Source: Rikenellaceae bacterium
GTDB lineage: Bacteria > Bacteroidota > Bacteroidia > Bacteroidales > Rikenellaceae
Reading direction: 5' to 3'
Assembly (NCBI GenBank): GCA_047174275.1
Contig: JBCQUC010000004.1
Location: 337-64,336 of the forward strand
Length of the DNA stretch: 64,000 nucleotides
A program made the translations under genes and the position numbers. Shown one piece after another: positions 8,646 to 24,113 of the stretch. Below the pieces are notes generated by a model that was not told the origin of the DNA, did not search any database, and saw only the letters and a program-made list of their open reading frames with translations. The number at the start of each line of letters is the position of its first letter. Positions within the stretch are counted from its first letter, which is position 1.

Positions 8646-9116
8646 ATGGAACTTACATTTGAGATATGTGACTACTCAAATCCAGCACATTTGACCGCTG
8701 TAGCGGATCTTTTGCAGGGATATATGGCCGACCCGATGGGGGAGCATCGACCACACAATAAATTGGAGCAACTTCGGTTGGTTGATGGTTTGGCTAACCA
8801 TCCAGCTTCATTCGTACTTCTTGCTTGTGTCGAGGATCAAGCTATAGGATTTGCAACCTGTTTCGAACTATTCTCGACATTTGAGATTAAGCCATTCATA
8901 AATATCCACGATTTTTTCGTCTTGCCTTCCTATAGGGGGCATGGTATCGGACGTGCAATGTTGGAACATATCTCGGAGATTGCAGTCGAGAAAAAGTGTT
9001 GCAAGGTCTCTTTGGAGGTGCGTACAGACAATGCGGTGGCGCAGGGACTATACCGAAGTGTAGGGTTTGGCGAGGCAAATCCCGATATGTTGTTTTGGGT
9101 GAAAACCTTTTATTAG
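8646..9116 (+). CDS. GNAT-family N-acetyltransferase
   Basis: Acetyl-CoA motif A (V-LPSYRGHGIGRAML) and NAVAQGLYRSVGF; 5 bp after the nifA stop. Confidence 0.88.
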   Translation: MELTFEICDYSNPAHLTAVADLLQGYMADPMGEHRPHNKLEQLRLVDGLANHPASFVLLACVEDQAIGFATCFELFSTFEIKPFINIHDFFVLPSYRGHGIGRAMLEHISEIAVEKKCCKVSLEVRTDNAVAQGLYRSVGFGEANPDMLFWVKTFY

Positions 9117-9413
9117 TGTTCGATAAAAATCCAACAAACCTTTGTAATGCACTGTAATATAACAGATTGTATGCGTTTGTAAAATCAGGGACTTGCTTTT
9201 GCGAATAGTCCCATTTGAGATACGAAATTGAAAATTTCGTCATCCTGAACTTGTTTCAGGATCTCAGCAAATGACAATGTAGTCACAGTAGTGTGTTAAT
9301 AAACAATAGTTTAGTAAATGGTGTAGGGATCCTGAAACAAGTTCAGGATGACGAAATTTTCAATTTCGTATCTCACGTATGACTTGCTAGAAACGTTTTA
9401 TCAGACACTAATA
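9111..9413. mobile_element. Family 1 nested REP-doublet element, copy A
   Basis: Outer TIR TTAGTGT(C/T)(C/T)GATAAAA with TA flanks; inverted REPs GTCATCCTGAACTTGTTTCAGGATC(T/C)C around a 60-nt spacer (9266-9325). Confidence 0.85.
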
Positions 9414-9430
9414 AAAAAACTTTAGAGGAT

Positions 9431-9670
9431 ATGAGTATTCAGAATGCAATAAATTTCTTGGCACGAGTTCAATCAGATGATGATTATAGACAATCGTGCT
9501 ACAAATTTCGAACGAAACAAGACCTCATGGAATATATACAGCAGGAGGGCTATAGCTTTTCGGATGGGGAGTTTGAAAATGCTATAAACCATCTCCTGCT
9601 GCGATGCTCAGATGCGTCACAGGGGTACGAAGTGCACCACCTGCAAAGCTGGTTTAGTCTGTTTCAGTAG
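9431..9670 (+). CDS. Nif11-like small protein
   Basis: MSIQNAINFLARVQSDDDYRQ...QEGYSFS-E resembles the Nif11 pattern (MS...FL..V..D..LR...GY.FT.EE); AGAGGA ribosome-binding site. Confidence 0.7.
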   Translation: MSIQNAINFLARVQSDDDYRQSCYKFRTKQDLMEYIQQEGYSFSDGEFENAINHLLLRCSDASQGYEVHHLQSWFSLFQ

Positions 9671-10061
9671 CCGATTTTAGTCGTTCGGTTACCAAATCTT
9701 TTAGTTCATTTAGACCCTCGATCATCCTATCAATTTGTGGATTGTCGGGGGTTCTGTATCCAAAGTCATCAATCGAGCAGATACCTTCGAACGAGCCTAC
9801 CAAGACAGCTGTCTTTCTAAGGCTGAGGCTCAAATCTGGCTCGAAATCGTTCACTTCGCGATAGAGCATAAGCGGAAGATGACTCGTTGCAATTGAGTCG
9901 TGGTGCGCCAACCATGCTATCATAAACTTCTCGAAACATATTGCTATCATATTGTATAGCAGATCGTTGTCGAATTTGCGATTCGGATTGCTAAATGATG
10001 ATGTTATTGTGTTGAGGTAACTATTAGCAAAGTCATAGTTATCTTTGGCTAACTCTTTCAT
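9654..10061 (-). CDS. Hypothetical protein with possible HEPN-like fold
   Basis: 135 aa, helical; ICFEKFMIAWL and TSHLPLML resemble the HEPN 'EK.LKA.L' and 'THDL..L' motifs. Confidence 0.6.
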   Translation of the reverse strand: MKELAKDNYDFANSYLNTITSSFSNPNRKFDNDLLYNMIAICFEKFMIAWLAHHDSIATSHLPLMLYREVNDFEPDLSLSLRKTAVLVGSFEGICSIDDFGYRTPDNPQIDRMIEGLNELKDLVTERLKSATETD

Positions 10062-10064
10062 AGT

Positions 10065-10232
10065 TATAGGGGAGTTCTAATAATTCCCTAATTTTAATTT
10101 TTAGTTAATAATTGCCCATTTTTGATTTTGCAAAAGTGGGTTGTAGTGGCTCTACCACCGATTTTTGAAAAATCGAAAAGGGGTGGTTAGTAACTGAAGG
10201 GTATTTTAGGGAATTATTAGAACTCCCCTATA
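10065..10232. mobile_element. Family 3 MITE, copy 2
   Basis: TIRs GGGGAGTTCTAATAATTCCC at both ends (element 10069-10228), TATA on both flanks. Confidence 0.8.
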
Positions 10233-11349
10233 TTGTTTTGTATATTGACAATAGTTCCGTAGGCTCTAAATCTCGTTTGTTGAGTGTGCACCAACGGCGT
10301 ACCTCCTCCAGAAGTCGAGGCAGGATCTCATCTCGGCAGACAACTCCCAACTCCTCTAGTGCAGATTTGAGGGTCGCCATACACGTATGTTTTCCTATCT
10401 TAAATCGACGCTCTGTGAGCCCAATCTCTTCGGCTTTGATAAGTTGATATGTTGATCGATCGCGTTTTAGATACTTCGTGTGGATCCCACTCTCGTGTGT
10501 TAAAACGAGCTCTCCGACAATAGGCTTCGATACGCTGTTTTTGCGTCCCGATATTCTCTCAACATAGCTGCAAATCGAAGGGAATAGAGTCTTGTTGAGC
10601 CCAGTTGTGATACCTGTACTCTTCTCTATAGCCATCACAACCTCCTCCATCGCTGCGTTTCCAGCCCTCTCGCCCAATCCATTAACTGTTGTGCTGAGAG
10701 CATCTGCCCCTGCCATCCATGCCGCTATCGTATTCGCACACGCCATTCCCAAGTCGTTGTGGGCGTGAAACTCAATCGAAATATCAGGGCTGAGATCCCT
10801 TATCGGGCGAATTAGATCTTGTGTCGAGAATGGGTTGAGCAGACCAACTGTATCTGCTAGGCGTATCCTCTTAGCTCCACTCTTAATTGTCTCAAATGCA
10901 AACTCCTCAAGGAAATGGCTGTTAGCACGAGAGGCATCTTGAGCCCCGACACTTACATAATCGAATGTCTCGTAACTCCTCGTAACAATCTCTTGAATCT
11001 CCTTGAGCACCCATTTACGACTCTTACCCATCACTCCAAGCAGTTTGTCTGAGACAGGGAACGATAGATGTATTCCATCCACGCCACTCTTACGTGCAAG
11101 TTCGATCTCCGAAGGCATAGCTCTGCACCATGCCAACATCCTAGCATCGAAATTTGCATCGGTTATCGCCTTGATCTCTTCGATCGCAGCACACCCCATT
11201 GCTGGGGTTCCAACCTCAAACTCACTGACTCCCGCTTCACACAACATCGAGACTAGAGCGAACTTTTCATCGAGGGTAAATGCTACCCCCGACGCTTGTT
11301 CACCGTCACGAAGTGTAGTGTCTACAAATATAGGGTGCTTATAACTCAT
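10228..11349 (-). CDS. nifV: Homocitrate synthase
   Basis: DTTLRDGEQ, LADTVG, HAHNDLGMA, NGLGERAGNA, HESGIH; nif context. Confidence 0.92.
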   Translation of the reverse strand: MSYKHPIFVDTTLRDGEQASGVAFTLDEKFALVSMLCEAGVSEFEVGTPAMGCAAIEEIKAITDANFDARMLAWCRAMPSEIELARKSGVDGIHLSFPVSDKLLGVMGKSRKWVLKEIQEIVTRSYETFDYVSVGAQDASRANSHFLEEFAFETIKSGAKRIRLADTVGLLNPFSTQDLIRPIRDLSPDISIEFHAHNDLGMACANTIAAWMAGADALSTTVNGLGERAGNAAMEEVVMAIEKSTGITTGLNKTLFPSICSYVERISGRKNSVSKPIVGELVLTHESGIHTKYLKRDRSTYQLIKAEEIGLTERRFKIGKHTCMATLKSALEELGVVCRDEILPRLLEEVRRWCTLNKRDLEPTELLSIYKTI

Positions 11350-11358
11350 ATATGCTCT

Positions 11359-11667
11359 TTAGTCACTAATCAAATACTTCTCGCATGCCTCTCCATCTTC
11401 GAGCGCATCAAGGATCTCGTCGATCGCATCCTCGCTATCCACGCCGCCATACCAGAAATTTAGAGGTTGGATAACCATTGCTGGTCCTTGTGAACATACA
11501 TTTAGACAGGCTGTAGTGCTTACCACGACATCTAGTCCGCGGTCGCTTGTCTCCTCGACAATATATTGTAAAAGTTGTGGTGCTCCCTTTTTGTTGCAAA
11601 CACCCAATGCCTCGCCGCTAACTCTGTACGAGTTGCATAGCAGAATGTGATACTGTGGCTTTTTCAT
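11359..11667 (-). CDS. Thioredoxin-like [2Fe-2S] ferredoxin
   Basis: LLCNSYR..C..KG and TACLNVCSQGP..WYG pattern. Confidence 0.88.
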   Translation of the reverse strand: MKKPQYHILLCNSYRVSGEALGVCNKKGAPQLLQYIVEETSDRGLDVVVSTTACLNVCSQGPAMVIQPLNFWYGGVDSEDAIDEILDALEDGEACEKYLISD

Positions 11668-11752
11668 ACCCTGATAATTTTAATGTTAGTTGGTTATTCT
11701 GTTTTGTATTTACTACTTGTTGAAATATAAGTTTTGCTCCGCATTGGAGATT

Positions 11753-11867
11753 GTTGATAGGTGGATGAAATTTTGAAGATGGCGTAGAGGGCTCTGGAAG
11801 GAGCATACTTTAAGTATGTGACTGAAGAGAACTCTATGGTATCTTTAAAATTTCGCCGCCTTGCAAC
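11753..11867 (-). repeat. Family 2 stem-loop/REP element, copy a (after nifB)
   Basis: Imperfect terminal IRs GTTGATAGGTGG...CCGCCTTGCAAC around a central palindrome GCATACTT-T-AAGTATG-TGAC; the shared flank extends to about 11730. Confidence 0.8.
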
Positions 11868-11887
11868 AATCTCTGTTGTGAAGTGGA

Positions 11888-13141
11888 TCAACCGCATCCC
11901 ATTGCGTTCCCCTTGCAGTTTGATCCGCACTTGAAAGCGTCGCGTTTGGCTATAGACTTAATTACGCGGTTGCTATAGATTCCATCCAATCCCTCATCTA
12001 TAAGTCCTGTCATCTCAACAACATTGAGCCCAGAGCTCTTTAGAACCTTAAGTGGTTTGTCACCTACGCCACTTACAAGTAGTGCGCGACAATCTGAAAG
12101 CATCTTTGAGAGCATCTCCCAGCGGATATCACCCAATCCACGATCTGGAGTTTTGCGACTCTCGACCCACTTAAATCCATTTGGCGTTTGGCGATAAATA
12201 TTGAGTGAAGCAGCCTCTCCAAGATGCATATTTACAAGCATACCCTCATTTGTAGCTACGGCAACATATGGACGACTATCTGTGTCAACATCCGAACGCT
12301 GAGCATACTCGCTCATCAGAGCATGCGCTTCGCTCATATCCTGTCCCAAAAGACCAGCGGCATCCGCACGACACCTTGCGCAGTGGCTCATAAGTTTAAG
12401 GTGGTCTGACGCTAATGTGCGAACACGGAAGACCATCTTTGGATCAGGTTGCTCTAGATTCTCGAAAGCGGTGTCGGCAACAGGGATAAGCGGAATGCAG
12501 TTTATAACATCAGCACCCAATTCAGAGCATACTCTAGCAACCTCCTTGATCCCATCCTCGTTGATCGTTGGGATTATAATACTGTTGATCTTTACAGTTA
12601 TACCCTTCGCCTTTAGCTTTGGGATACATGCTAACTGCTTGTCGAGGAGTCTCTTTGCTCCATCTTCGCCTCGATAGATATGCTTTCCATCGCGAACCCA
12701 TTTGTAGATCTTCGCAAGAACCTTTGTGTCGATACTATTTATTGTGATGGTTACGTGGCTAACATTTAGCTCAGCAATCTCATCAATATATGGCTCTAGA
12801 CCAAGTCCATTTGTTGATAGGCAGAAGATCTTATCAGGGAATCTCTCGTGTGCAAGACGCATAGTCTCAAGAGTCTCCTCAGGGTTTGCAAATGGGTCTC
12901 CAGGGCCTGCAATACCAATTACCGACAGGTTTGGCATACGCTTATCGAGCTCCTCAAGATAACCTACAGATTGTTTTGGTGTGAGAATTGTCGATGTCAC
13001 TCCTGGGCGACTCTCGCTTACGCAATCATATTTGCGATTGCAATAGTTGCACTGAATATTGCACTTTGGCGCAACGGGTAGGTGTACTCGTGCGTGGGTA
13101 TGTTTTGCTTCAGCGTCGAAGCATGGGTGCTTGTGTTCCAT
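11888..13141 (-). CDS. nifB: FeMo-cofactor radical SAM protein NifB with C-terminal NifX-like domain
   Basis: HPCF, PKCNIQCNYC (CxxxCxxC), ESRPGV, IAGPGDP, HCARCRADA. Confidence 0.97.
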   Translation of the reverse strand: MEHKHPCFDAEAKHTHARVHLPVAPKCNIQCNYCNRKYDCVSESRPGVTSTILTPKQSVGYLEELDKRMPNLSVIGIAGPGDPFANPEETLETMRLAHERFPDKIFCLSTNGLGLEPYIDEIAELNVSHVTITINSIDTKVLAKIYKWVRDGKHIYRGEDGAKRLLDKQLACIPKLKAKGITVKINSIIIPTINEDGIKEVARVCSELGADVINCIPLIPVADTAFENLEQPDPKMVFRVRTLASDHLKLMSHCARCRADAAGLLGQDMSEAHALMSEYAQRSDVDTDSRPYVAVATNEGMLVNMHLGEAASLNIYRQTPNGFKWVESRKTPDRGLGDIRWEMLSKMLSDCRALLVSGVGDKPLKVLKSSGLNVVEMTGLIDEGLDGIYSNRVIKSIAKRDAFKCGSNCKGNAMGCG

Positions 13142-13145
13142 GATC

Positions 13146-14450
13146 TTAAATGTATTTATACCCTACGGGTGAGTTCTCTTGTTTATACTCTATTAATGCG
13201 TTTACAACTCTATCAAATAGCTCTTGTGTGCCTCGATATCCGATCTTTAACTGACGAGCAGCTCCAAAACGGTCGTGGATCGGGAATCCAACACGTATGA
13301 TTGGGATCTTTAGTTCGCGAGCTATATAGTAACCTTTGCTGCTTCCCATCATAATGTCGGGTTTGATCTGGTTGAGTTTGGCGTGTATCGACTCAAAATC
13401 TGTATCGGTGAACGAATAGACCTCAAGTCCAATCTCCTTGCACCATGCTGATAGTGCCGAGACCAAATCTGCCTCTCCGTAGATTGCGATCTTTTTGCCG
13501 AATAGATATTTGTGAGCATCTACATACGCATCTATCAATCGTCCACGCTCCATCTGATACTTCTTTGGGATCTCAACTCCATACTCAGCACTGAGACACT
13601 CCATAAATCTATCCGAAGCCTCTATGCCAATTGGAATCGGCATCTGGGTGTTTTTTACTCCGCAATCACTCTCCAGCCACTCTCCACCTGTTGGGATACG
13701 CCCGCTCTCGGATGTACGTTTGTAGAACTGGTTGAATCTCTCTCCAAACTCAATGACAGCCTTTGCATCTCCACACTCCTCAATCTCTTTGAGTGGTGTT
13801 CCTCCACTTGGAATAAGTTGATACTCCGCTGTATATACATTGTCGAGTGACTCGCTGTAGTCGGGAAATACCGTCCCCGTAACACCAAAGTCAGCGATGA
13901 TCTCCTTGATATATCTGATATCGGCAGGTGTCACCATTCCTGGTAGAACAACTAGCTTCTCGGTTCGCTTAGTTGACTTTGCGAGTGTCTTTAATGCTGA
14001 GAGAACCGTATTGTGAAACCCTTCGGCATGCGATCCACAGTAGCTAGGTGTCGAACTATGGATAAATGCTGGAAGATTATCCGACATCTTTGCATCGCGG
14101 TAGTTTCTGATGTGACCTGGGATATCCTCACCAATTGTCTCCGAGAGACATGTAGAGGCGATTCCGATCACCTTTGGGTGGTACTGTTTTATTATATTGT
14201 CTATTCCTGTTATGAAGTTTTTACTTCCTCCATATACCGTCGACTCCTCCGAAAAGTTGCTCGATGCAATATCTACGGGCTCTTTGTAGTGGCTAATCAT
14301 ATATCGGCGGATATATGTTGCACACCCTTGTGATCCGTGAATAAGCGGAACACAACCCTCAATCCCCTTGAATACCAACGATGCTCCAAGTGGGGCGCAA
14401 AGTTTGCAAGCGTTGCGCGACGATACGTATGTTTTATCCTCTGTTTTCAT
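13146..14450 (-). CDS. nifN: Nitrogenase cofactor scaffold NifN
   Basis: CAPLGA, HGSQGCATY, TCLSETIGED, GFPIHDR. Confidence 0.92.
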   Translation of the reverse strand: MKTEDKTYVSSRNACKLCAPLGASLVFKGIEGCVPLIHGSQGCATYIRRYMISHYKEPVDIASSNFSEESTVYGGSKNFITGIDNIIKQYHPKVIGIASTCLSETIGEDIPGHIRNYRDAKMSDNLPAFIHSSTPSYCGSHAEGFHNTVLSALKTLAKSTKRTEKLVVLPGMVTPADIRYIKEIIADFGVTGTVFPDYSESLDNVYTAEYQLIPSGGTPLKEIEECGDAKAVIEFGERFNQFYKRTSESGRIPTGGEWLESDCGVKNTQMPIPIGIEASDRFMECLSAEYGVEIPKKYQMERGRLIDAYVDAHKYLFGKKIAIYGEADLVSALSAWCKEIGLEVYSFTDTDFESIHAKLNQIKPDIMMGSSKGYYIARELKIPIIRVGFPIHDRFGAARQLKIGYRGTQELFDRVVNALIEYKQENSPVGYKYI

Positions 14451-15792
14451 CGCTCTCCCTCCTATTTGTTTTTGTAAATTTCCATACTGGAGTCATCGCT
14501 GTGGCGTAGATCTCCTTTGCAAAGTTCAACATCCCCTCGTATCCTGCAAGAGCCTCTTTGCGTTCGTGGTTGTGGTCACAAAAACCGAGTCCAATCTTGT
14601 AGGCTATCGGGCGTTCCTTCACACCTCCGATGAATATATCAGCCTCTTTCTCCTTTACGAAGTGGGAGAGCTCAATAGGGTTCGAGTCATCGACGATCAC
14701 AGTCCCCTCGTCACAAAGATTCTTTATGAGCTCATAATCTTCGGTAGAGCCAGTTTGAGATCCGATGATAACAGTCTTTACTCCGATGAGTCGAAGAGCC
14801 TTCACCAAAGAGATCGCTTTGAATGCTCCGCCGACATATATCGCAGCTCGCTTACCCTCCAAAGCCTCTTTGTATGGTTTTAGTGCAGGGAGCAGTCGAG
14901 TCATCTCGTCGCGGACAATTTCGCGAGCCCTCTCCATCATCTCGTCATCTTTGAAGAATCGAGCAACTTCGTATAGCGCATCGCTCATATCCTCAATTCC
15001 GAAGTATGATACATGCATAAATGGTGTGCCATACTCCTCTTTCATCATCTTGGCAAGGTGGATCATCGAGCCAGAACACTGCACAACATTGAGCCCCGCT
15101 TTGTGGGCGTTGCGAATATCATCGACACGTCCATCGCCAGTGATTGTTGCATTTACGTGGACTCCCATTCGCTTGTAGTATTCGAGCAGAATCCAGAGTT
15201 CACCCGCAAGGTTGAAATCTCCCAAAATATTTATACTCTTCTTGGGAATGTCGCCATCTCCTGTGCCGACCAACTTAAAGAGTGATTCACAAGCTACTTT
15301 GTAGCCATCTTTTTTCGAGCCCTGAAAACCTGGAGCTTGAACAGGTATTGTTGTGACACCAGTCTCCTCGGTCACCTGTTTACAGATCTGCTCAACATCA
15401 TCGCCAATCACACCTACGATACATGTCGTATAGACAAATGCCGCCTTTGGCTGGTGTGCTGCGATAAGCTCTATGAGCGAAGCGTATAACTTCTTTTCGC
15501 CGCCGAAGATTACATCTTTCTCTTGAAGGTCGGTCGAAAAACTTGTTCTGTGAAGTTCGGGCCCCGATGAAAGTGACCCTCGAATGTCCCAAGTGTATGC
15601 AGCGCAACCTATTGGGCCATGAATTATGTGTAAAGCATCCGCAATGGGGTATAGCACAACTCGTGATCCGCAAAAGACACACGCTCGTTGACTCATACTT
15701 CCTGCAAGACTCACTTTGCCAGCCTGAACAGTTGGTGCATCTGCGCCACTTGTCGAGACTTGCCTCTCCCTCTCCTTTAAAATGTGAGCCAT
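14434..15792 (-). CDS. nifE: Nitrogenase cofactor scaffold NifE
   Basis: RACVFCGSR, HGPIGCAAY, TCIVGVIGDD, VQCSGS. Confidence 0.93.
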   Translation of the reverse strand: MAHILKERERQVSTSGADAPTVQAGKVSLAGSMSQRACVFCGSRVVLYPIADALHIIHGPIGCAAYTWDIRGSLSSGPELHRTSFSTDLQEKDVIFGGEKKLYASLIELIAAHQPKAAFVYTTCIVGVIGDDVEQICKQVTEETGVTTIPVQAPGFQGSKKDGYKVACESLFKLVGTGDGDIPKKSINILGDFNLAGELWILLEYYKRMGVHVNATITGDGRVDDIRNAHKAGLNVVQCSGSMIHLAKMMKEEYGTPFMHVSYFGIEDMSDALYEVARFFKDDEMMERAREIVRDEMTRLLPALKPYKEALEGKRAAIYVGGAFKAISLVKALRLIGVKTVIIGSQTGSTEDYELIKNLCDEGTVIVDDSNPIELSHFVKEKEADIFIGGVKERPIAYKIGLGFCDHNHERKEALAGYEGMLNFAKEIYATAMTPVWKFTKTNRRESDENRG

Positions 15793-15808
15793 AACATTGA
15801 TTTTTTTG

Positions 15809-16086
15809 TATTAGTGTCCGATAAAACTTTCCTAGCAGTCCCATGTGAGATACGAAATTGAAAATTTCGTCATCCTGAACTTGTTTCAGGATCCCTGCAT
15901 TATTGATTAAGTTGTTGTGTGCTAATGTATTACAGGGGTTGTGTTGTCGTTTGCTGAGATCCTGAAACAAGTTCAGGATGACGAAATTTTCAATTTCGTA
16001 TCTCAAGTGAGACTATTAAGCCCCTAATTCCACAAACATATACAATCTGTTACAAAGGTTTGTCGGGTTTTTGTCGGACAGTAATA
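15809..16086. mobile_element. Family 1 nested REP-doublet element, copy B (nifK-nifE gap)
   Basis: Same layered IRs as copy A in the opposite orientation; 60-nt spacer; TA flanks. Confidence 0.85.
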
Positions 16087-16105
16087 ATTTTTTTTGTTTT
16101 GTTAA

Positions 16106-16148
16106 TTCGAAGATCTCAACCCTCTAATTTGAGGTTGAAATCTTCGAA
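16106..16148 (-). promoter_or_regulatory. Stem-loop immediately 3' of nifK
   Basis: TTCGAAGATCTCAACCCTC-TAATTT-GAGGTTGAAATCTTCGAA, 9 bp after the nifK stop; no U-tract on the minus strand. Confidence 0.6.
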
Positions 16149-16157
16149 AATATTGTA

Positions 16158-17537
16158 TTACATTTGGAACTCAATAGTCTCCTCTGTGCACTCTCTATCA
16201 CGGTGAGATAGAAGCTCATGGATGATTGAAGTTACCATGTTCGCAGCTCCCTTATAACCAGTCTTAGCGAAGTAGTTGTGACCAGCACGATCGGCGATTG
16301 GGAATCCCATACGATAGAATGGTGTGTTCTCGTCGCGAGCGATATACTTACCATAAGTATTTCCGATCAACAAATCAACACCCTCTTGTTTGATCCACTG
16401 GTGAAGTTGGAACATATCGGCATTTGCACCGCTCTTCCACTTAGCCTCTGGGATATCCTTTAGTAGCTCAGCCATACGCTCCTCGAACTCCTTACCTGGA
16501 GTACCCGTTACGATGTATACTGGACGCATATCCATAGATACAAGGAACTCAACCATTGGGATAAGTGTGTCTGGATCGCCCCACAATGCTACACGCTTGC
16601 CATACAAGTGAACCGAAGCATCTGAGATCAAATCGAGCAACTGACCGCGCTCGTAAGTCAACTCATCCGATACTGGAACGTTTGCGTGGCGGCTGATAGA
16701 TGTCAAGAAACGATCTGTAGCCAAGAATCCGATTGGAATATCAAGAACCTCGAATGGAACTTTACACTGATTCTCCATCTTGATACAAGCGTCGGTTGTA
16801 GTGTATGAACCCAAACCTACAGATACCTTGCTGTCACCGCTTAGGCGGATATCTGCAATTTTAGCACCTCCATCTGGGTACATCTTGTATGTTCCAGTCA
16901 TTGGCCCATCCAATACTCCTGTCATATCTGGGAACATGAATGTGCGACTCTCCATAACCTTGCAAAGTCTCTTGATCTCAGCTTGATCCGATGGCTCCAT
17001 CCAACCCGAAATAAGGTTGATTACGTTGCGTCTCTTGCCTGTTTTTGTGGCAAACGACTTCACCATCGAAGTTACCTGATTTGCATATCCAGTGACGTGT
17101 GTTCCAACATAACTTGGTGTGTTACAGTAGATAACCTCCTTGCCAGCTGGGATAAATCCATCTTCTGCAGCCTTCGATACAATCTGAGTCATATCATCAC
17201 CAATTGTCTCCGAAAGACAAGTTGTGTGAACTGCGATAACCTCTGGGTCGTAAGTTGTGAAGATCGTATTGATCGCCTGAACCAAGTTGGCAGAACCTCC
17301 AAATACTGAAGAACCCTCAGAGAATGAACTTGTAGCTGCCATGATTGGCTCTTTGAAGTGACGTGTAAGTGCACTTCGGTGGTATGAGCAACATCCTTGT
17401 GAACCGTGGCTATGTGGCAAACACCCGTGGATACCGAGTGCCGCGTACATTGCACCAACTGGTTGACAAGTCTTTGCTGGGTTGACCGTCAGAGCTTTTC
17501 TTTCGATCTCCTTATCTGTTGTGTGTCTTAATAACAT
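16158..17537 (-). CDS. nifK: Nitrogenase MoFe protein beta chain
   Basis: NPAKTCQPVGA, HGSQGCCSY, TTCLSETIGDD P-cluster ligands. Confidence 0.97.
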   Translation of the reverse strand: MLLRHTTDKEIERKALTVNPAKTCQPVGAMYAALGIHGCLPHSHGSQGCCSYHRSALTRHFKEPIMAATSSFSEGSSVFGGSANLVQAINTIFTTYDPEVIAVHTTCLSETIGDDMTQIVSKAAEDGFIPAGKEVIYCNTPSYVGTHVTGYANQVTSMVKSFATKTGKRRNVINLISGWMEPSDQAEIKRLCKVMESRTFMFPDMTGVLDGPMTGTYKMYPDGGAKIADIRLSGDSKVSVGLGSYTTTDACIKMENQCKVPFEVLDIPIGFLATDRFLTSISRHANVPVSDELTYERGQLLDLISDASVHLYGKRVALWGDPDTLIPMVEFLVSMDMRPVYIVTGTPGKEFEERMAELLKDIPEAKWKSGANADMFQLHQWIKQEGVDLLIGNTYGKYIARDENTPFYRMGFPIADRAGHNYFAKTGYKGAANMVTSIIHELLSHRDRECTEETIEFQM

Positions 17538-17550
17538 AATCTTTCCCTCT

Positions 17551-19179
17551 TTAATTTAGTACATAGCTTGCCTCAACATATGCCTCACGCTCCCATGGTG
17601 CCTTCAAATATTTGTGAAGTGTAGCGCATGAGATCATCTCGATATCTTTGTAGAAGTTGATAGCACCTGCAAATCCTGCATATGGGCCACCAGAATCGTA
17701 GTTGTGAAGCATCTTCAATGGAATACCCATCTTCTGAGCAACATACTTCTCCTTGATACCTGCACAGAATACATCTGGGTGGTATAGCTCGATCAACTTC
17801 TCCATCTCGTAGTGGCTCAAATCGTCGATAACGAGTGTGCCCTTCTGCATATCTGCCATAAGTCCCTCGTAGTCGTTGAACTCGCCGCCATTCGAGATCT
17901 TTGTCAAGTGCTCATCTGGTTTACGCTTGTTGTAACGCTCCTCATCTTTGTAGACTGTGATCTCCTCGATGTTACGGCTATCGGCATCAACTTGGATTGT
18001 TGGAATCACGCGGCGACCCTCGTAGTCATCACGGTGACCGAACTCATATCCAGCTGCAAGAGTTGTCATACCCAACTCGTTGAATAGCTCTTGGTAGTGG
18101 TGAGCGCGAGATCCACCGACAAACAACATCGCTGTCTTGCCAACTGTCTTTTTGCGAGCCTGCTCAGCTGCAGCCTCAACACGTACCATCTCCTCAGCGA
18201 TAACCTTCTCGATCTGGTCGATAAGCTCCTGATCCTCGAAGTACTCTCCGATTTTGCGAAGTGATTTAGCTGTTGCCTCAGCACCGATGAAGTTACACTT
18301 AGTCCAAGGAATACCGAACGATGTATTCAACATCTCAGCTACGTAGTTGATTGAACGGTGACACATAACAAGACTCAAATCTGCTGTGTGAGCACGCTCA
18401 AACTTAGTCATTGTAGCATTTCCCGACATTGTAGCGATTAGCTCAATTCCGCAACGATCCATCAAATCCTCAATTACGAAAGCGTCACCTCCGATGTTGT
18501 ACTCTCCAAGCAGATTGACACGATACTTGTGCTTGCCCTCGATTGTGTCATCCTTACCGATACAGTTCTTGTAGAGCTGATTGTTCGCGATGTGGTGACC
18601 AGCCGACTGAGATACTCCACGATATCCCTCGCAAGAGAAACCGATGATGTTAACCCCAGGGAACTCCTCCTCCATCTGGCGAGCTACACGGTGAACATCA
18701 TCACCGATAAGACCTACAGGACAAGTTGAGAATACTCCGATCGCCTTTGGGTGGAATAGCTCCATCGCCTCGCGGATCGCCTGCTTTAGCTTCTCCTCAC
18801 CACCGAATACGATGTTTGAGTCCTGCATATCAGTTGAGAAACAGTATGGGATGTAGTTCTCATCCATGTCAGACTCTGGGCGAGTCTGGTTACGACGTGT
18901 AAGCCATGAGTAGAATCCGCAACCGATCGGGCCGTGTGTGATATTTACGATATCACGAGTTGGTCCCATGATTACTCCCTTACAACCTGCGTAAGTACAA
19001 CCACGCTGTGTGATGATACCTGGCACTGTACGTACATTGGCTTGGATCTTTGGGATCAGATCTGGGTCGTTTACGGCAACCGCCTTAGAACGTTTTTTTG
19101 CTACCTTCTTCGGGTACTTCTCAGCTACCGCCTCGACGAACTCCGAAAAATCTGGTAATTTCTTTATATCTTCTTTCAT
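17551..19179 (-). CDS. nifD: Nitrogenase MoFe protein alpha chain (long, group II type)
   Basis: RGCTYAGC, HGPIGCG, TCPVGLIGDD, SAGHHIAN, MCHRSINY, GGSRAHHY, LHNYDSGGPY; about 50-aa insertion (RVIPTIQVDADSRNIEE...). Confidence 0.97.
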   Translation of the reverse strand: MKEDIKKLPDFSEFVEAVAEKYPKKVAKKRSKAVAVNDPDLIPKIQANVRTVPGIITQRGCTYAGCKGVIMGPTRDIVNITHGPIGCGFYSWLTRRNQTRPESDMDENYIPYCFSTDMQDSNIVFGGEEKLKQAIREAMELFHPKAIGVFSTCPVGLIGDDVHRVARQMEEEFPGVNIIGFSCEGYRGVSQSAGHHIANNQLYKNCIGKDDTIEGKHKYRVNLLGEYNIGGDAFVIEDLMDRCGIELIATMSGNATMTKFERAHTADLSLVMCHRSINYVAEMLNTSFGIPWTKCNFIGAEATAKSLRKIGEYFEDQELIDQIEKVIAEEMVRVEAAAEQARKKTVGKTAMLFVGGSRAHHYQELFNELGMTTLAAGYEFGHRDDYEGRRVIPTIQVDADSRNIEEITVYKDEERYNKRKPDEHLTKISNGGEFNDYEGLMADMQKGTLVIDDLSHYEMEKLIELYHPDVFCAGIKEKYVAQKMGIPLKMLHNYDSGGPYAGFAGAINFYKDIEMISCATLHKYLKAPWEREAYVEASYVLN

Positions 19180-19190
19180 AGGAATCTTAT

Positions 19191-19556
19191 TTAATCGAGT
19201 GTGATATCTCCAGTCTCACCTGTGCGGACACGAACTGATTCGAATGTGTTGACCACGAAGATCTTACCATCTCCACTCTTGCCCGTTTGGTTAACCTTAA
19301 TAATTGTCTCTACAGCCAAATCCTTCTTGTCGTCAGTTACAACAAGCGTAATCATACGCTTAGATTTTAGACGTGGATTCTGCTGAATATGCTCGTGGTG
19401 CTCAGGGTCGATACCCTCAGCCTTCTCCAAATCGCCGTGACCCTTACCACGTCCCACAACTGGAAGAGCTGTGAACGATGGTAGATCGACTGCAGAGAGA
19501 GCCTCCTTAGTCTCGGTCATCTTCGCGATACGGATGATTGCCATTATTAACTTCAT
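19191..19556 (-). CDS. nifI2: NifI2, PII-like nitrogenase switch-off protein
   Basis: GRGKG, PKR-like SKRMI, TGKSGDGKIFV, RVRTGE; located between nifH and nifD. Confidence 0.88.
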   Translation of the reverse strand: MKLIMAIIRIAKMTETKEALSAVDLPSFTALPVVGRGKGHGDLEKAEGIDPEHHEHIQQNPRLKSKRMITLVVTDDKKDLAVETIIKVNQTGKSGDGKIFVVNTFESVRVRTGETGDITLD

Positions 19557-19588
19557 AGTAATCTAATTTATTAGTCGTTTTTTGTAAA

Positions 19589-19630
19589 GTTGATAGGTGG
19601 ATGAAATTTGAAATTTCGTCGCATTGCAAC
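19589..19630 (-). repeat. Family 2 element, internally deleted copy b (after nifI1)
   Basis: GTTGATAGGTGGATGAAATTT-GAAATTTCGTCGCATTGCAAC: only the terminal arms remain. Confidence 0.7.
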
Positions 19631-19631
19631 T

Positions 19632-19958
19632 TTACACCTCCATGAATCCTGAAGAGATAGTATAGCACTCCTCAACTGGTGTAACGAAGATCTTACCATC
19701 TCCGAACTGTCCTGTTGCGCTAGAGCGAGCTGAGTTTATGATTGTCTCAATCACAAAATCTTTGTCCTTCTTTTTGATAGTAATCATCAACATCTCCTTT
19801 GGAAGCTCATCATACGTTACGTTTCCAGCCTTGATACCACGCTGCTTACCACGTCCATATACTGCGATCTTTGTAACGGCTGGGAATCCAGCGTCCATCA
19901 ACGACTTCATTACTACTGCCGATTTTTCTGGTCTTACGATTGCTCTAATTAAATACAT
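19632..19958 (-). CDS. nifI1: NifI1, PII-like nitrogenase switch-off protein
   Basis: AIVRPEK, GRGKQRG, YDELPKEML, GQFGDGKIFV. Confidence 0.88.
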   Translation of the reverse strand: MYLIRAIVRPEKSAVVMKSLMDAGFPAVTKIAVYGRGKQRGIKAGNVTYDELPKEMLMITIKKKDKDFVIETIINSARSSATGQFGDGKIFVTPVEECYTISSGFMEV

Positions 19959-19996
19959 TGTCTTGATTTTTTATTTGGTTTGTGTTTTGCTCAAAA

Positions 19997-20111
19997 GTTG
20001 ATAAGTGGATGAGATCTTGTGCATCGTAAGCTGGCGGAGGAGGGAGCATACTTTGGGTATGTGACCGATTGCCGACAGCTTGGGATGTGCAAGATCTCAC
20101 CACCTTGCAAC
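19997..20111 (-). repeat. Family 2 element, copy c (after nifH)
   Basis: GTTGATAAGTGG...GAGCATACTTTGGGTATGTGAC...CCACCTTGCAAC with divergent inner arms. Confidence 0.75.
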
Positions 20112-20117
20112 TTTTGT

Positions 20118-20975
<858 letters not shown>

Positions 20976-21008
20976 TTAAGTTATCTATTTTCTTATGCTG
21001 TTTAATCT

Positions 21009-21024
21009 TGCATTAAGTGTGCCA
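21009..21024 (-). promoter_or_regulatory. Sigma54 (-24/-12) promoter of nifH
   Basis: Minus strand TGGCAC-ACTTA-ATGCA with correct GG-N10-GC spacing, about 65 bp upstream of the ATG. Confidence 0.85.
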
Positions 21025-21155
21025 AAAAGTCTACTTGGATGAAATAAATTCAAAATTATTTTGTAATACTCTGTTTTATAGCGAGTTGTAGTCGTGGTAT
21101 TTTTTGACTGATTTTTGGTTTAAATAATCTGAGTTATTAAGTATATTTAAAATAT

Positions 21156-21197
21156 TACATTTCTGTAGCTTTTCTTATGTGGATGTAGCAAAATGTA
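21156..21197. promoter_or_regulatory. Candidate activator-binding region of the nifH promoter
   Basis: TACA-TTTC-TGTA at 21156-21167 plus TGTA half-sites at 21184 and 21194. Confidence 0.5.
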
Positions 21198-21298
21198 GGA
21201 AATTGGTTTTGAATGTTATTTTTGTCTGCTAATTTTTATTTAGCACTTTCGTTGCATCACGTTTAGACTCTGAGAGGGTCGCTATTTTGAATCACCTT

Positions 21299-21539
21299 TA
21301 TTAGTGTTCGATAAAACTTTTCTAGCAGTCCTACTTGAGATACGAAATTGAAAATTTCGTCATCCTGAACTTGTTTCAGGATCTCTACATCATTGAGTAA
21401 GCTATTGCTTATTAGTATATTACAGAGGCGATATTGTCATTTGCTGAGATCCTGAAACAAGTTCAGGATGACGAATCCGTTGGATTCGATAACATGGTGC
21501 CAATAAAGTTGTTACAAGTGTTGTTATCGGACACTGATA
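21299..21539. mobile_element. Family 1 nested REP-doublet element, copy C
   Basis: Outer TIRs with TA flanks, REP doublet, 60-nt spacer; an extra REP remnant follows at 21545-21557. Confidence 0.85.
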
Positions 21540-21570
21540 AACTCGTTTCAGGATCTCCGCAGAGCTAATT

Positions 21571-22320
21571 TTAATATGTTACAGTCGAAAGCCTACACTC
21601 TATAATAGAGTTGCATTTTTTGTGTCGTTTAAAGAAGAAGGATCTTCCGCCACAACTCTCCGTATGTGTCGATATAACTCGATCCTCCCCCTTTGAAAAT
21701 CCAAAGTGTAGGATTGAGGTCGCCATAGCTGTAATATCTGCTGGGTCGTGACACACCATTAGTGTGATGCTTCCAAGCATTTTGTGTGCCTGCTTGATAC
21801 TCTCTCTGAGTGACTCCTTTAACTCCCAATCTAGGGCGGAGAATGGTTCATCGAGTAGCAACATTGATGGCTCTGAAGCTATCGCACGAGCCAAAGCGAC
21901 ACGTTGCTTCTGCCCACCTGAGAGCTGTTGAGGGTATCGAGAGTGGAGTGCGCCGATATTGAAACACTCAAGCAACTCCATTATCTTCTGTTCATCTTTG
22001 TTTGGTTGAGCGTACAGAATCTGCTCAAATACCGTCATATTTGGAAATAGCGCAAAATCCTGAAACATCAACCCTGTTCTACGCTTCGATGCTGGCACAA
22101 ATATTCTCTTGTCGGTGTCGCACCACACCTCTCCATCAAATACTACACGACCTCTGTGAGGCTTCACAAGCCCCGATATAATCCTTAGTAGGGTAGTCTT
22201 GCCAATTCCCGATGCACCCTGCAAACAGACAATATCCCCCAAATTTAGATCTGCACGTACCTCCAAAAGAGATCTACCTTCGACTGTGTAGAGTGGCTGT
22301 TTGATATCAATTTCCAACAT
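21571..22320 (-). CDS. modC: Molybdate ABC transporter ATPase
   Basis: GASGIGKT, LSGGQKQRVALARA, LLLDEPF; mod context. Confidence 0.9.
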   Translation of the reverse strand: MLEIDIKQPLYTVEGRSLLEVRADLNLGDIVCLQGASGIGKTTLLRIISGLVKPHRGRVVFDGEVWCDTDKRIFVPASKRRTGLMFQDFALFPNMTVFEQILYAQPNKDEQKIMELLECFNIGALHSRYPQQLSGGQKQRVALARAIASEPSMLLLDEPFSALDWELKESLRESIKQAHKMLGSITLMVCHDPADITAMATSILHFGFSKGEDRVISTHTESCGGRSFFFKRHKKCNSIIECRLSTVTY

Positions 22321-23002
22321 AATCGTTTTGGTTTTTGTGTGACCTATTATTGAAACTGTAGATTATTGTGAGTAGTACCACTGCGATTACAAATAGCACA
22401 ATCGAGTATCTATTTGCATTATCATATTGGAGTGCCTGCACCTGATCGTATATTGCAATTGATGCTACGCGAGTCTCGCCTGGGATATTTCCACCAACCA
22501 TAATTATAACACCAAACTCACCGATGCAGTGTGCAAACGATAGGGCTAGCGATGTTATAATAGATGGCATCATATTGGGAAGTAGGACTCGAAAGAATAT
22601 GCTTAACTTTGATTTGCCCAATGTCTCGGCGGCATCGCTCAAATTTCGAGGTATAGAGATAAACCCCGATTGAAGGGGTTGAATCATGATCGGGAGTCCA
22701 AAGAGGACGCTACCAATCAATATCCCCTCGAAGCTAAATGCGAGTCGACTATCGAATGTCTCGTACCACCAAGTGCCAAACCATGAGTTTGGGCTATATA
22801 ACATAAGTAGGTAGAATCCCAAAACTATTGGTGGCAACACCATCGGAATGCTAATCAGTGCCTCGATAAGAGAGCGCGCAAAGAAGCGTTTGTATGCCAA
22901 AAAATAGGCTATCGGCAACCCTATTATAAATAGTATTGCCGTAGTGCTAAATGCGAGTTTGCCAGTGAGGAGTAGTGTCTCCCAAAAATCTGCGTCATTC
23001 AT
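22307..23002 (-). CDS. modB: Molybdate ABC transporter permease
   Basis: PMVLPPIVLGFYLL, EAA-like AAETLG, GEFG, GNIPGETR. Confidence 0.93.
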   Translation of the reverse strand: MNDADFWETLLLTGKLAFSTTAILFIIGLPIAYFLAYKRFFARSLIEALISIPMVLPPIVLGFYLLMLYSPNSWFGTWWYETFDSRLAFSFEGILIGSVLFGLPIMIQPLQSGFISIPRNLSDAAETLGKSKLSIFFRVLLPNMMPSIITSLALSFAHCIGEFGVIIMVGGNIPGETRVASIAIYDQVQALQYDNANRYSIVLFVIAVVLLTIIYSFNNRSHKNQNDYVGN

Positions 23003-23071
23003 GAAATTTCCCCCAAAATTTATAAATTAGAGATTATTGCAAAACGGTAGTTTTGCTCCGCTATGGAGAGT

Positions 23072-23185
23072 GTTGATAGGTGGATGAAAATTTAAAGATG
23101 GCGTAGAGGGCCCTGAAAGGAGCATACTGAAGTATGTGACTGAAGAGAACTCTGCGTTATCTTTGAATTTTCGCCGCCTTGCAAC
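23072..23185 (-). repeat. Family 2 element, copy d (after modA)
   Basis: Near-identical to copy a, including the left flank AGTTTTGCTCCGC. Confidence 0.8.
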
Positions 23186-23193
23186 GCTCTCAA

Positions 23194-23946
23194 TTATTTT
23201 ACTATATCGTATCCGTACTTCAACCATATGGGCTTCGACTCTGCGGATAGTACAAAGTCCCGAAACTTTATAGCCTCAAGATTCTCTATTTTTTGCTTAA
23301 CCACAACACAGCTCTGAATTATTGGGCTGTATAGGTTGTCTGGAATAATATACGTATATCCATTGTTTTGAGCCGTTGGTGATCTGTGTTGGGATAGGGC
23401 AATCACTCCAAGATCTGCATTGCCCGAGAATACATACTGTGCAGTAGCTCCGATATTCTCTCCATATATAATCTTTGATTTTACATCGTTATATATTCCT
23501 ATGTTGTTCAACATCTCAATGGCGTGTACTCCATATGGTGCGGCGTTTGGATTTGCGATGGCTATTCTGTGTGATTTGTTGAGCGTCAATGCGTCGAGCC
23601 CGATCTGTGAGATATCTATTGAGCGGCTATATAGGAGTAGTTTTCCGCATGCATAGGGTCTCACTTCGCCTGTTGTGTAGCCTCCGCTCTTTAGTTTGAG
23701 TGCATAATCTTCATCTGCGGAGAAGAATAGGTCGTAGCCTGCGCCATTCACGATCTGTTGCACCAACATTCCAGATCCTCCGTAGTTGATATTGATTGCA
23801 ACTTTTGGGTTGCTCTCTATATATATAGACTTGATCTCATCCATTGCATCGCGAACGTTTGCGGCAGCGGCAATGCTTACAACACTCTGGGCATAGGTAT
23901 TGGCTGAAAAGACAATACAGATAATAAATAATAGGGCTCTCTTCAT
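23194..23946 (-). CDS. modA: Molybdate-binding periplasmic protein
   Basis: Signal peptide, AAAAN, GGSGML.QQI.NGA.YDLFFSA, ANP.AAPYG. Confidence 0.93.
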   Translation of the reverse strand: MKRALLFIICIVFSANTYAQSVVSIAAAANVRDAMDEIKSIYIESNPKVAININYGGSGMLVQQIVNGAGYDLFFSADEDYALKLKSGGYTTGEVRPYACGKLLLYSRSIDISQIGLDALTLNKSHRIAIANPNAAPYGVHAIEMLNNIGIYNDVKSKIIYGENIGATAQYVFSGNADLGVIALSQHRSPTAQNNGYTYIIPDNLYSPIIQSCVVVKQKIENLEAIKFRDFVLSAESKPIWLKYGYDIVK

Positions 23947-23976
23947 ATCATAAAATAATTTATTATATATGATAGA

Positions 23977-23991
23977 GCATTATCTGTGCCA
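23977..23991 (-). promoter_or_regulatory. Sigma54 (-24/-12) promoter of modA
   Basis: Minus strand TGGCAC-AGATA-ATGC; flank TTTATT-N2-ATCCA-N6-CTTTT shared with the nifH promoter. Confidence 0.8.
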
Positions 23992-24113
23992 AAAAGGTGT
24001 GGTGGATATAATAAAAAGATTTTTTAAGGGGTTGTTGTTTGATAATCAGTGTGTTATCAATAGGGGTGTATTGAAGATGAAAACACCTTTAAAGAGCTAG
24101 ATTTGAAAAATAT

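Follow-up and report, generated by a model that had tools for sequence, protein, structure and literature searches.

Repeats behind nif and mod stop codons of a Rikenellaceae bacterium as probable copies of a non-autonomous IS5-type transposable element

The stretch of DNA analysed here (the window) comprises 64,000 nucleotides of contig JBCQUC010000004.1 of a Rikenellaceae bacterium (assembly GCA_047174275.1, positions 337 to 64,336) and carries a cluster of nif and mod genes, four of which are followed by copies of the same repeat. The minus strand is the coding strand for every gene at window positions 9.6-24 kb, and the repeats are read here on that strand. As an earlier note on this DNA had described, each of the four copies is on the minus strand and has the orientation of its upstream gene, and their GTTGCAA motif starts 6 nt behind the stop codon of nifH, 1 nt behind that of nifI1, 20 nt behind that of nifB and 8 nt behind that of modA. 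The window is otherwise free of the repeat: a profile built from the full copies (nhmmer) finds no more on the contig. The copies, the direct repeats around them and the gene upstream of the oldest copy are located as follows.

23030..23191, minus strand: full-length copy of the element, 162 bp, in the modA-modB spacer; left end GAGAGCGTTGCAAGG, right end TTTTGCAATAATCTC
23192..23196 (left) and 23025-23029 (right), minus strand: target-site duplication TAATT at the modA copy; the left repeat includes the modA stop TAA (23194-23196)
20118..20942, minus strand: nifH, the gene upstream of the oldest copy; stop TAA at 20118-20120
20112-20116 and 19985-19989: CAAAA direct repeats around the nifH copy, a 5-bp duplication
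19990..20111, minus strand: diverged tail-less copy, 122 bp, in the nifH-nifI1 spacer
19589..19630, minus strand: internally deleted copy, 42 nt, in the nifI1-nifI2 spacer; nifI1 stop at 19632-19634
11723..11873, minus strand: copy downstream of nifB, 151 bp, with a degenerate tail
11874-11878 and 11718-11722: CAACA direct repeats around the nifB copy; nifB stop TGA at 11888-11890

Alignment of the copies together with their flanks shows that the core bounded by GTTGCAA and TATCAAC, which the earlier note had taken for the whole element, is genuine but not its full extent. The complete unit is about 162 bp long and has outer GAGAYC ends: it begins with the left end GAGAYCRTTGCAAGG, continues into a long imperfect hairpin and closes with a tail of about 40 nt, in which two small hairpins are followed by TTTTGCAAYRGTCTC, the inverted repeat of the left end. 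In tail-bearing copies the terminal inverted repeats measure 13 bp (GAGAYCRTTGCAA and TTGCAAYRGTCTC); a control end pattern gave no matches in two genomes. The tail motif occurs solely joined to the element, and the possibility that the tail is an independent repeat was rejected for that reason. Perfect 5-bp direct repeats flank 21 of the 47 tail-bearing copies and a further 13 match at four of the five positions; 12 of the 21 perfect duplications sit at the exact predicted offset, where about 0.1 would be expected. Duplications at other copies read ATAAT, TTAAA, ATTAA, GTAAT, CAAAA and ACTCG, and the 5-bp targets and reconstructed empty sites are AT-rich only, with no wider consensus.

When two sister genomes were scanned for the 13-mer end, one pair of ends was found 1,262 bp apart (G058:C41:4677-5938). 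Between them lies an open reading frame (ORF) of 358 aa that scores 261.6 bits on the IS5 family model NCBIfam NF033581 (cut-off 140) and also matches Pfam PF01609 (DDE_Tnp_1) and PF05598 (DUF772). The ends of this insertion sequence (IS), ...TTGCAAGG on the left and ...TTGCAAAA on the right, differ from each other in the same way as the left and right ends of the repeat. Since the same two ends thus bound an IS5-family IS, the repeat can be placed as a MITE (miniature inverted-repeat transposable element) of the IS5-family group. A transposase fragment with 94% identity stands behind the same left end in G017, and G058 and G017, both MITE carriers, are the two genomes with the transposase among the 151 of the genus. 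Metagenome relatives of the IS, at 51-82% identity, bear the same ends, one of them with an exact 5-bp duplication. A metagenome scan for the exact IS left end gave no match. The interior of the MITE is not derived from the IS, and neither an autonomous copy nor orphan ends were found in the window's genome (G000) or the roughly 130 loci examined. The G058 IS (also L146:1678-2939) lies directly downstream of a truncated MITE copy, which itself abuts the stop of a 201-aa ORF.

The earlier statement that the repeat is found only behind nif and mod genes holds for the window and not for its genome, where about 25 copies are spread over about 20 of the 116 contigs (2.21 Mb). Thirteen of these are near-identical full copies, with 86-96% and mostly at least 90% identity to the nifB or modA copy of the window; the others include three diverged full copies, about six short forms that have lost the interior between short CTTCA direct repeats, and three stubs. 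The genes that precede the copies are ordinary and unrelated to one another (pyrF, hisIE, dapA, ilvA, htpG, moeB/thiF, tamL, and genes for an ECF sigma factor, an efflux outer-membrane protein, a PfkB kinase and a phage-type ClpP). Gene calls are based on open frames, and 12 of 16 upstream genes tested against NCBIfam match a family, so that most are real genes. Copy number varies among sister species, from at least 42 in G076 and G058 through about 25 in G000 and eight in G057 and G017 to two in G151 and G166; since these genomes are draft metagenome-assembled genomes (MAGs), the counts are minimum values and IS copies have probably been assembled incompletely. Viral contigs in a public collection contain no exact match to the MITE left arm. 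Two copies in G000 are followed by a tRNA-like sequence, TTAGCTCAGCGGAGAGCAC... (G000:C53:15180-15260 and G000:C102:4478-4520), and in the first of these the element ends after its left arm, just before the tRNA-like sequence. In a full copy on contig C7 of G000, one sense frame appears by eye to be stop-free throughout (about 54 codons), which may simply reflect the G-poor composition of the element.

Seven of the 151 genus genomes carry nifH; judged by one housekeeping locus they are also the closest relatives, and we compared their nif loci. Behind nifH, the MITE is present in five genomes (besides the window's these are G057, G151, G058 and one more MAG) and as a remnant in a sixth, G076, while G166 and G063 have a different hairpin element. 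All seven nif-bearing species carry a hairpin element of at least 100 nt at this position. The site behind nifI1 holds the short form in G000 and a full-length copy in G057, in keeping with the earlier reading of the nifI1 copy as one that has lost its middle, and is empty (21-23 nt) in the other five. A copy behind nifD is found in G057 only; G076 has one behind nifN, of which two other species retain remnants. The copies that follow nifB in G000, G058 and G076 each stand at a different offset and therefore represent three independent insertions. The modA site is filled in G000 only, the spacer in G063 being an empty one of 29 nt. The element has thus moved, with nif sites filled in some species and vacant in others, and every nif or mod copy in the seven species points along the genes. 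Within G057 the three nif copies share 92-93% identity, whereas the next best copy of that genome reaches 71%, which speaks for local spread.

Counted genome-wide, nif enrichment is real: 4 of about 25 copies fall in about 12 kb of 2.2 Mb, where about 0.14 would be expected (P ~1e-5). The excess recurs in sister species, although these cases are not independent, the nifH copy being ancestral. The alternative suggestion of the earlier note, that the repeats mark the donor of a nif island, finds no support for the nifB and modA copies, which are 90% identical to each other and 90-95% identical to copies elsewhere in the same genome, and whose sites are vacant in sister species. The diverged nifH copy is the sole old one in the window, common to at least five nif-bearing species.

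Several observations on these spacers stand by themselves. The nifH-nifI1 spacers that hold a different hairpin element are L020:10343-10500 (G166) and L024:5323-5441 (G063); the G166 element has a central module (TCACGTAC, loop, GTACGCT) in common with the MITE and unrelated arms, which hints at modular exchange between repeat families. The nifK-nifE spacer carries a hairpin of unrelated sequence in all seven species (L019-L024 and window 15793-16157); in the window this spacer has a length of 368 nt and contains a further repeat family, the arms of which have the motif AAATTTCGTCATCC in common with the MITE. At L019:7855-7870, NifD of G057 ends in ...I-G-stop beside the MITE and that of its relatives in ...(L/I)-N-stop, so the insertion seems to have altered the last NifD codon in G057. 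Finally, the nif-mod cluster (window 9000-24000) is apparently transcribed against the replication direction inferred from third-position GC skew, a noisy measure.

The preference for stop codons extends far beyond nif. We assembled a set of 112 different copies, from G000 and some 13 further genomes, and counted a copy as lying at a stop when its left end was placed -5 to +8 nt from the stop of a frame in the same orientation with 80 codons or more. This is the case for 77 of the 112 (69%). Ten have their right end at a stop on the opposite strand and six do both, lying between convergent genes, which leaves a net split of 71 gene-oriented against 4 mirrored copies (binomial P = 7e-17). In G000, 17 of 25 copies are so placed, whereas by chance 1.8-2.4% of the permitted site-orientations would count as such. 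The position is also precise. A co-oriented stop is present within 25 nt of 80 copies; the distance falls in the interval -5 to +8 for 77 of these and beyond +8 for the other three. The commonest distance is -1 to 0, which means that the stop lies inside or against the 5-bp duplication; a stop that has been split is often rebuilt as TA+G, with the G supplied by GAGAYC. The stops beside the copies (TAA, TAG, rarely TGA) mirror the usage of the genome (58%, 36% and 5%); in G000, frames of at least 100 codons end in TAA 933 times, in TAG 582 times and in TGA, the rare one, 86 times out of 1,601. Of the youngest copies, defined by a nearest relative at least 96% identical, 19 of 22 are at stops, and since young copies are as biased as old ones the rule has not been acquired slowly. 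Copies away from stops and between co-directional genes are in sense orientation in 12 cases and antisense in 7. Replication direction was considered as the cause of orientation and found no support in a weak test (5 versus 9). The earlier proposal of preferential insertion fits these results, in that a transposon-derived MITE lies at a stop in the orientation of the gene in the majority of cases and is enriched in nif; taken as a whole, the earlier observation is borne out for the window, its restriction to nif and, for the nifB and modA copies, the reading as a donor marker are not, and preferential insertion is the part of its interpretation that fits.

The interior of the element forms an imperfect hairpin of about 110 nt, in keeping with the long stem of the earlier note, and its stability far exceeds chance on both strands: the modA copy folds at -40.9 kcal/mol in the sense direction (z = -7.0 against shuffled sequences) and at -75.7 kcal/mol in the antisense direction (z = -13.1). 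The antisense strand is the more stable one in all 104 full cores, from at least 14 genomes, with mean fold energies of -72.7 kcal/mol antisense and -45.6 kcal/mol sense and with 6.6 versus 0.39 G.U pairs per copy. Covariation was assessed on 46 diverse copies aligned in the antisense direction. Standard pairs fill 97.0% of the alignment cells; the figure falls to 83.8% when the alignment is shuffled, to 36-45% when the structure is slid along it and to 85.6% when these pairs are read on the mRNA strand. The alignment has a covariation score of 0.396; shuffled alignments give 0.143, with none of 500 reaching the observed value, and slid structures give 0.055-0.088. Cells with G.U in the antisense reading outnumber those in the reverse reading by 260 to 14, and by 104 to 13 where G.U is not the majority state. 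The sense strand of the element contains 28% C and 17% G, while the GC skew at third codon positions of the flanking coding sense strands is +0.12; with an asymmetry opposite to the coding-strand skew, mutational bias is an unlikely cause and was rejected as its source. From this pattern of substitutions, it is apparently the non-mRNA strand, in a single-stranded form, whose pairing is maintained, and this is the main unexplained feature of the element. It argues against selection for a stem-loop on the mRNA, even though the mRNA still bears a substantial one.

Familiar RNA classes do not account for the hairpin. At the Rfam 15 gathering threshold the window yields only a tRNA, and the best sub-threshold matches are miRNA-like hairpins with E of about 0.1. 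A hammerhead was rejected by eye because the order of motifs and the core do not fit. An intrinsic terminator was likewise rejected, since the sense strand runs on as ATCTCTAAAGC... with no T-run and several copies lie inside operons.

Taken together, the four repeats behind nif and mod genes are, with high confidence, copies of a non-autonomous IS5-type MITE that sits next to stops in the direction of the gene. The features by which a MITE can be recognised in sequence are all present: inverted repeats, a target duplication of fixed length, ends shared with an autonomous IS, small size (42-163 bp) with many dispersed copies and no transposase of its own, and movement between sites. Its 13-15-bp ends correspond to the inverted repeats, left and right, of an IS5-family IS, and we propose that it moves through a DDE-transposase reaction with duplication of 5 bp of AT-rich target. 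Copies are scattered over the genome, in number and position that differ between sister species, and in most of them the left (IRL-type) end lies on or beside the stop of a co-oriented gene; with the left end at the stop, the gene retains its stop and the downstream spacer stays intact. On this proposal the nifB and modA copies would be recent insertions in this lineage, the nifH copy would be ancient and the nifI1 copy a decayed local copy of it. All four would be passengers co-transcribed with the nif and mod operons, and any effect on nif mRNA would be a by-product.

Several results weigh against this proposal. The assembly of the window's own genome contains no transposase and no autonomous copy. 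None of the eight related autonomous IS copies with adequate flanks lies at the stop of a long ORF, nor do the two of the genus, and any preference intrinsic to the transposase is therefore hypothetical. Nor do the 5-bp targets have a consensus by which true stops could be told apart. In the hairpin, 28 of 47 pairs have changed on both sides, a compensation that a passive DDE-type MITE does not need. Lastly, the site behind nifH is filled in every one of the seven nif-bearing species, and a host function there is possible.

As to the bias itself, we lean, by a little, towards the site and mode of insertion as its main cause rather than later selection, because positional precision and the behaviour of young copies favour a preference of the element; the IS copies away from stops and the fully occupied nifH site keep selection alive. 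The latter would operate through selective retention: the element would insert almost anywhere in AT-rich DNA, copies next to stops and in gene orientation would be kept as 3' or intercistronic stem-loops that protect upstream mRNA, and mirrored copies would be purged because in them a near-perfect hairpin of 55 bp (about -76 kcal/mol) stands where ribosomes terminate. We regard this account as possible but doubtful. It would make sense of the hairpin behind nifH in every nif-bearing species, even though two of them use a different element, of nif enrichment in several species, of IS relatives that do not sit at stops, of the slight orientation bias of off-stop copies and of a sense RNA that folds far better than shuffled sequences, and it has precedents in stabilising repetitive extragenic palindromes (REPs) and in REPs near stops. 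It sits poorly with a pairing that is conserved antisense and with a stop placed within the 5-bp duplication, since a stabiliser needs no such nucleotide precision, as well as with youngest copies as biased as old ones and upstream genes that share no theme.

A second account would place the function on the other strand. Here the hairpin would act in single-stranded form on the strand antisense to the host gene, either as RNA or as DNA, and that role would fix its orientation; as RNA it could, for example, form a one-way barrier to transcription that comes into the gene from downstream, or a site of processing for it, and as single-stranded DNA it could serve in the element's own propagation. 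The more stable antisense fold of every core, the covariation, intermediate states of variable pairs that are antisense G.U, and a strand asymmetry opposite to the flanking coding skew are what such a role would predict. We nevertheless consider it unlikely. A Bacteroidetes-type promoter (TAnnTTTG) in the tail is not conserved on inspection by eye, Rfam has no match for the element, and the antisense hairpin has no trailing U-tract. Orientation is also unlinked to inferred replication direction, in the weak test given above, and IS5-type DDE transposition is not known to require single-stranded DNA.

Returning to the IS5-type MITE, its two unusual properties might be brought together. Tentatively, the element could be actively aimed at the first nucleotides past the translated frame, in gene direction, and its hairpin be kept antisense because a strand-specific single-stranded form, RNA or DNA, belongs to its life cycle or to a one-way host function. 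Such targeting may follow from a coupling to translation as it ends, or to transcription; one example would be the place where the nascent RNA becomes free of ribosomes.

The last candidate, a REP or REPIN moved by a REP-associated tyrosine transposase (RAYT) or an IS200-like tyrosine transposase, or else an integron attC-like site, would suit a long imperfect intergenic palindrome that lies near stops, is gene-oriented and folds asymmetrically, yet it is very improbable: the Y1 transposase PF01797 has no match in G000 while control genomes do match, 5-bp duplications are present and the ends are common with a DDE element of the IS5 family, the ends GTTG...CAAC, on inspection by eye, reverse the attC order of inverse core (RYYYAAC) followed by core (GTTRRRY), and copies are single and dispersed within conserved operons rather than arranged in cassette arrays.

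Among known systems, the element most resembles bacterial MITEs such as Correia/NEMIS, ERIC, RUP and MITEAba12 (PMC2229807, PMC6382973), which are likewise small and non-coding, share inverted repeats with an IS, generate target duplications, exist in many dispersed copies that are polymorphic between relatives, are co-transcribed and form a long hairpin. It differs from them in its IS5-family parent, its GAGACCRTTGCAA ends and its 5-bp duplication, as well as in the share of copies at a stop (69%), the 71 to 4 orientation and the conservation of pairing on one strand. Stop-overlapping repeats have been described for pneumococcal BOX elements: the relevant passages of Croucher et al. (2011, PMC3049150) report 36 cases in which BOX overlaps the 3' end of a gene and supplies its stop, with no evidence of truncation, and BOX elements are transcribed as 3' adducts of operons. 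BOX differs in sequence, host, parent IS (ISSpn2 is proposed) and a modular A/B/C make-up, and those passages give no comparable statistic on strand asymmetry or orientation. The REPs and BIMEs of E. coli are also intercistronic and 3' palindromes; they are 20-40 bp long, have no target duplications and are linked to RAYT tyrosine transposases (PMC3337134), in contrast to the DDE IS5 partner and the absence of a RAYT here. MITEs and stop-overlapping repeats are thus known kinds of element, and what is added here is the parent IS, a strong orientation rule and strand-specific conservation of a hairpin. Some E. coli REPs stabilise upstream mRNA (malE-malF). Many REPs, as Liang, Rudd and Deutscher reportedly found in 2015, lie within 15 nt of a stop and affect translation there.

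In this study a presumed regulatory RNA specific to nif gives way to a transposon family with a parent IS and an exact insertion anatomy, and this anatomy should aid the annotation of uncultured Rikenellaceae genomes. Repeated independent hits make the nif operon a natural test bed for the effects of passengers on operon stoichiometry. Two puzzles are raised at the same time: a DDE-type MITE lies on true stops at 30 times the chance rate and, by 71 to 4, in gene orientation, and conservation of its hairpin concerns the non-mRNA strand. If true, insertion aimed at stop codons, or a strand-specific single-stranded form of the hairpin, would be a new property for an IS5-type MITE.

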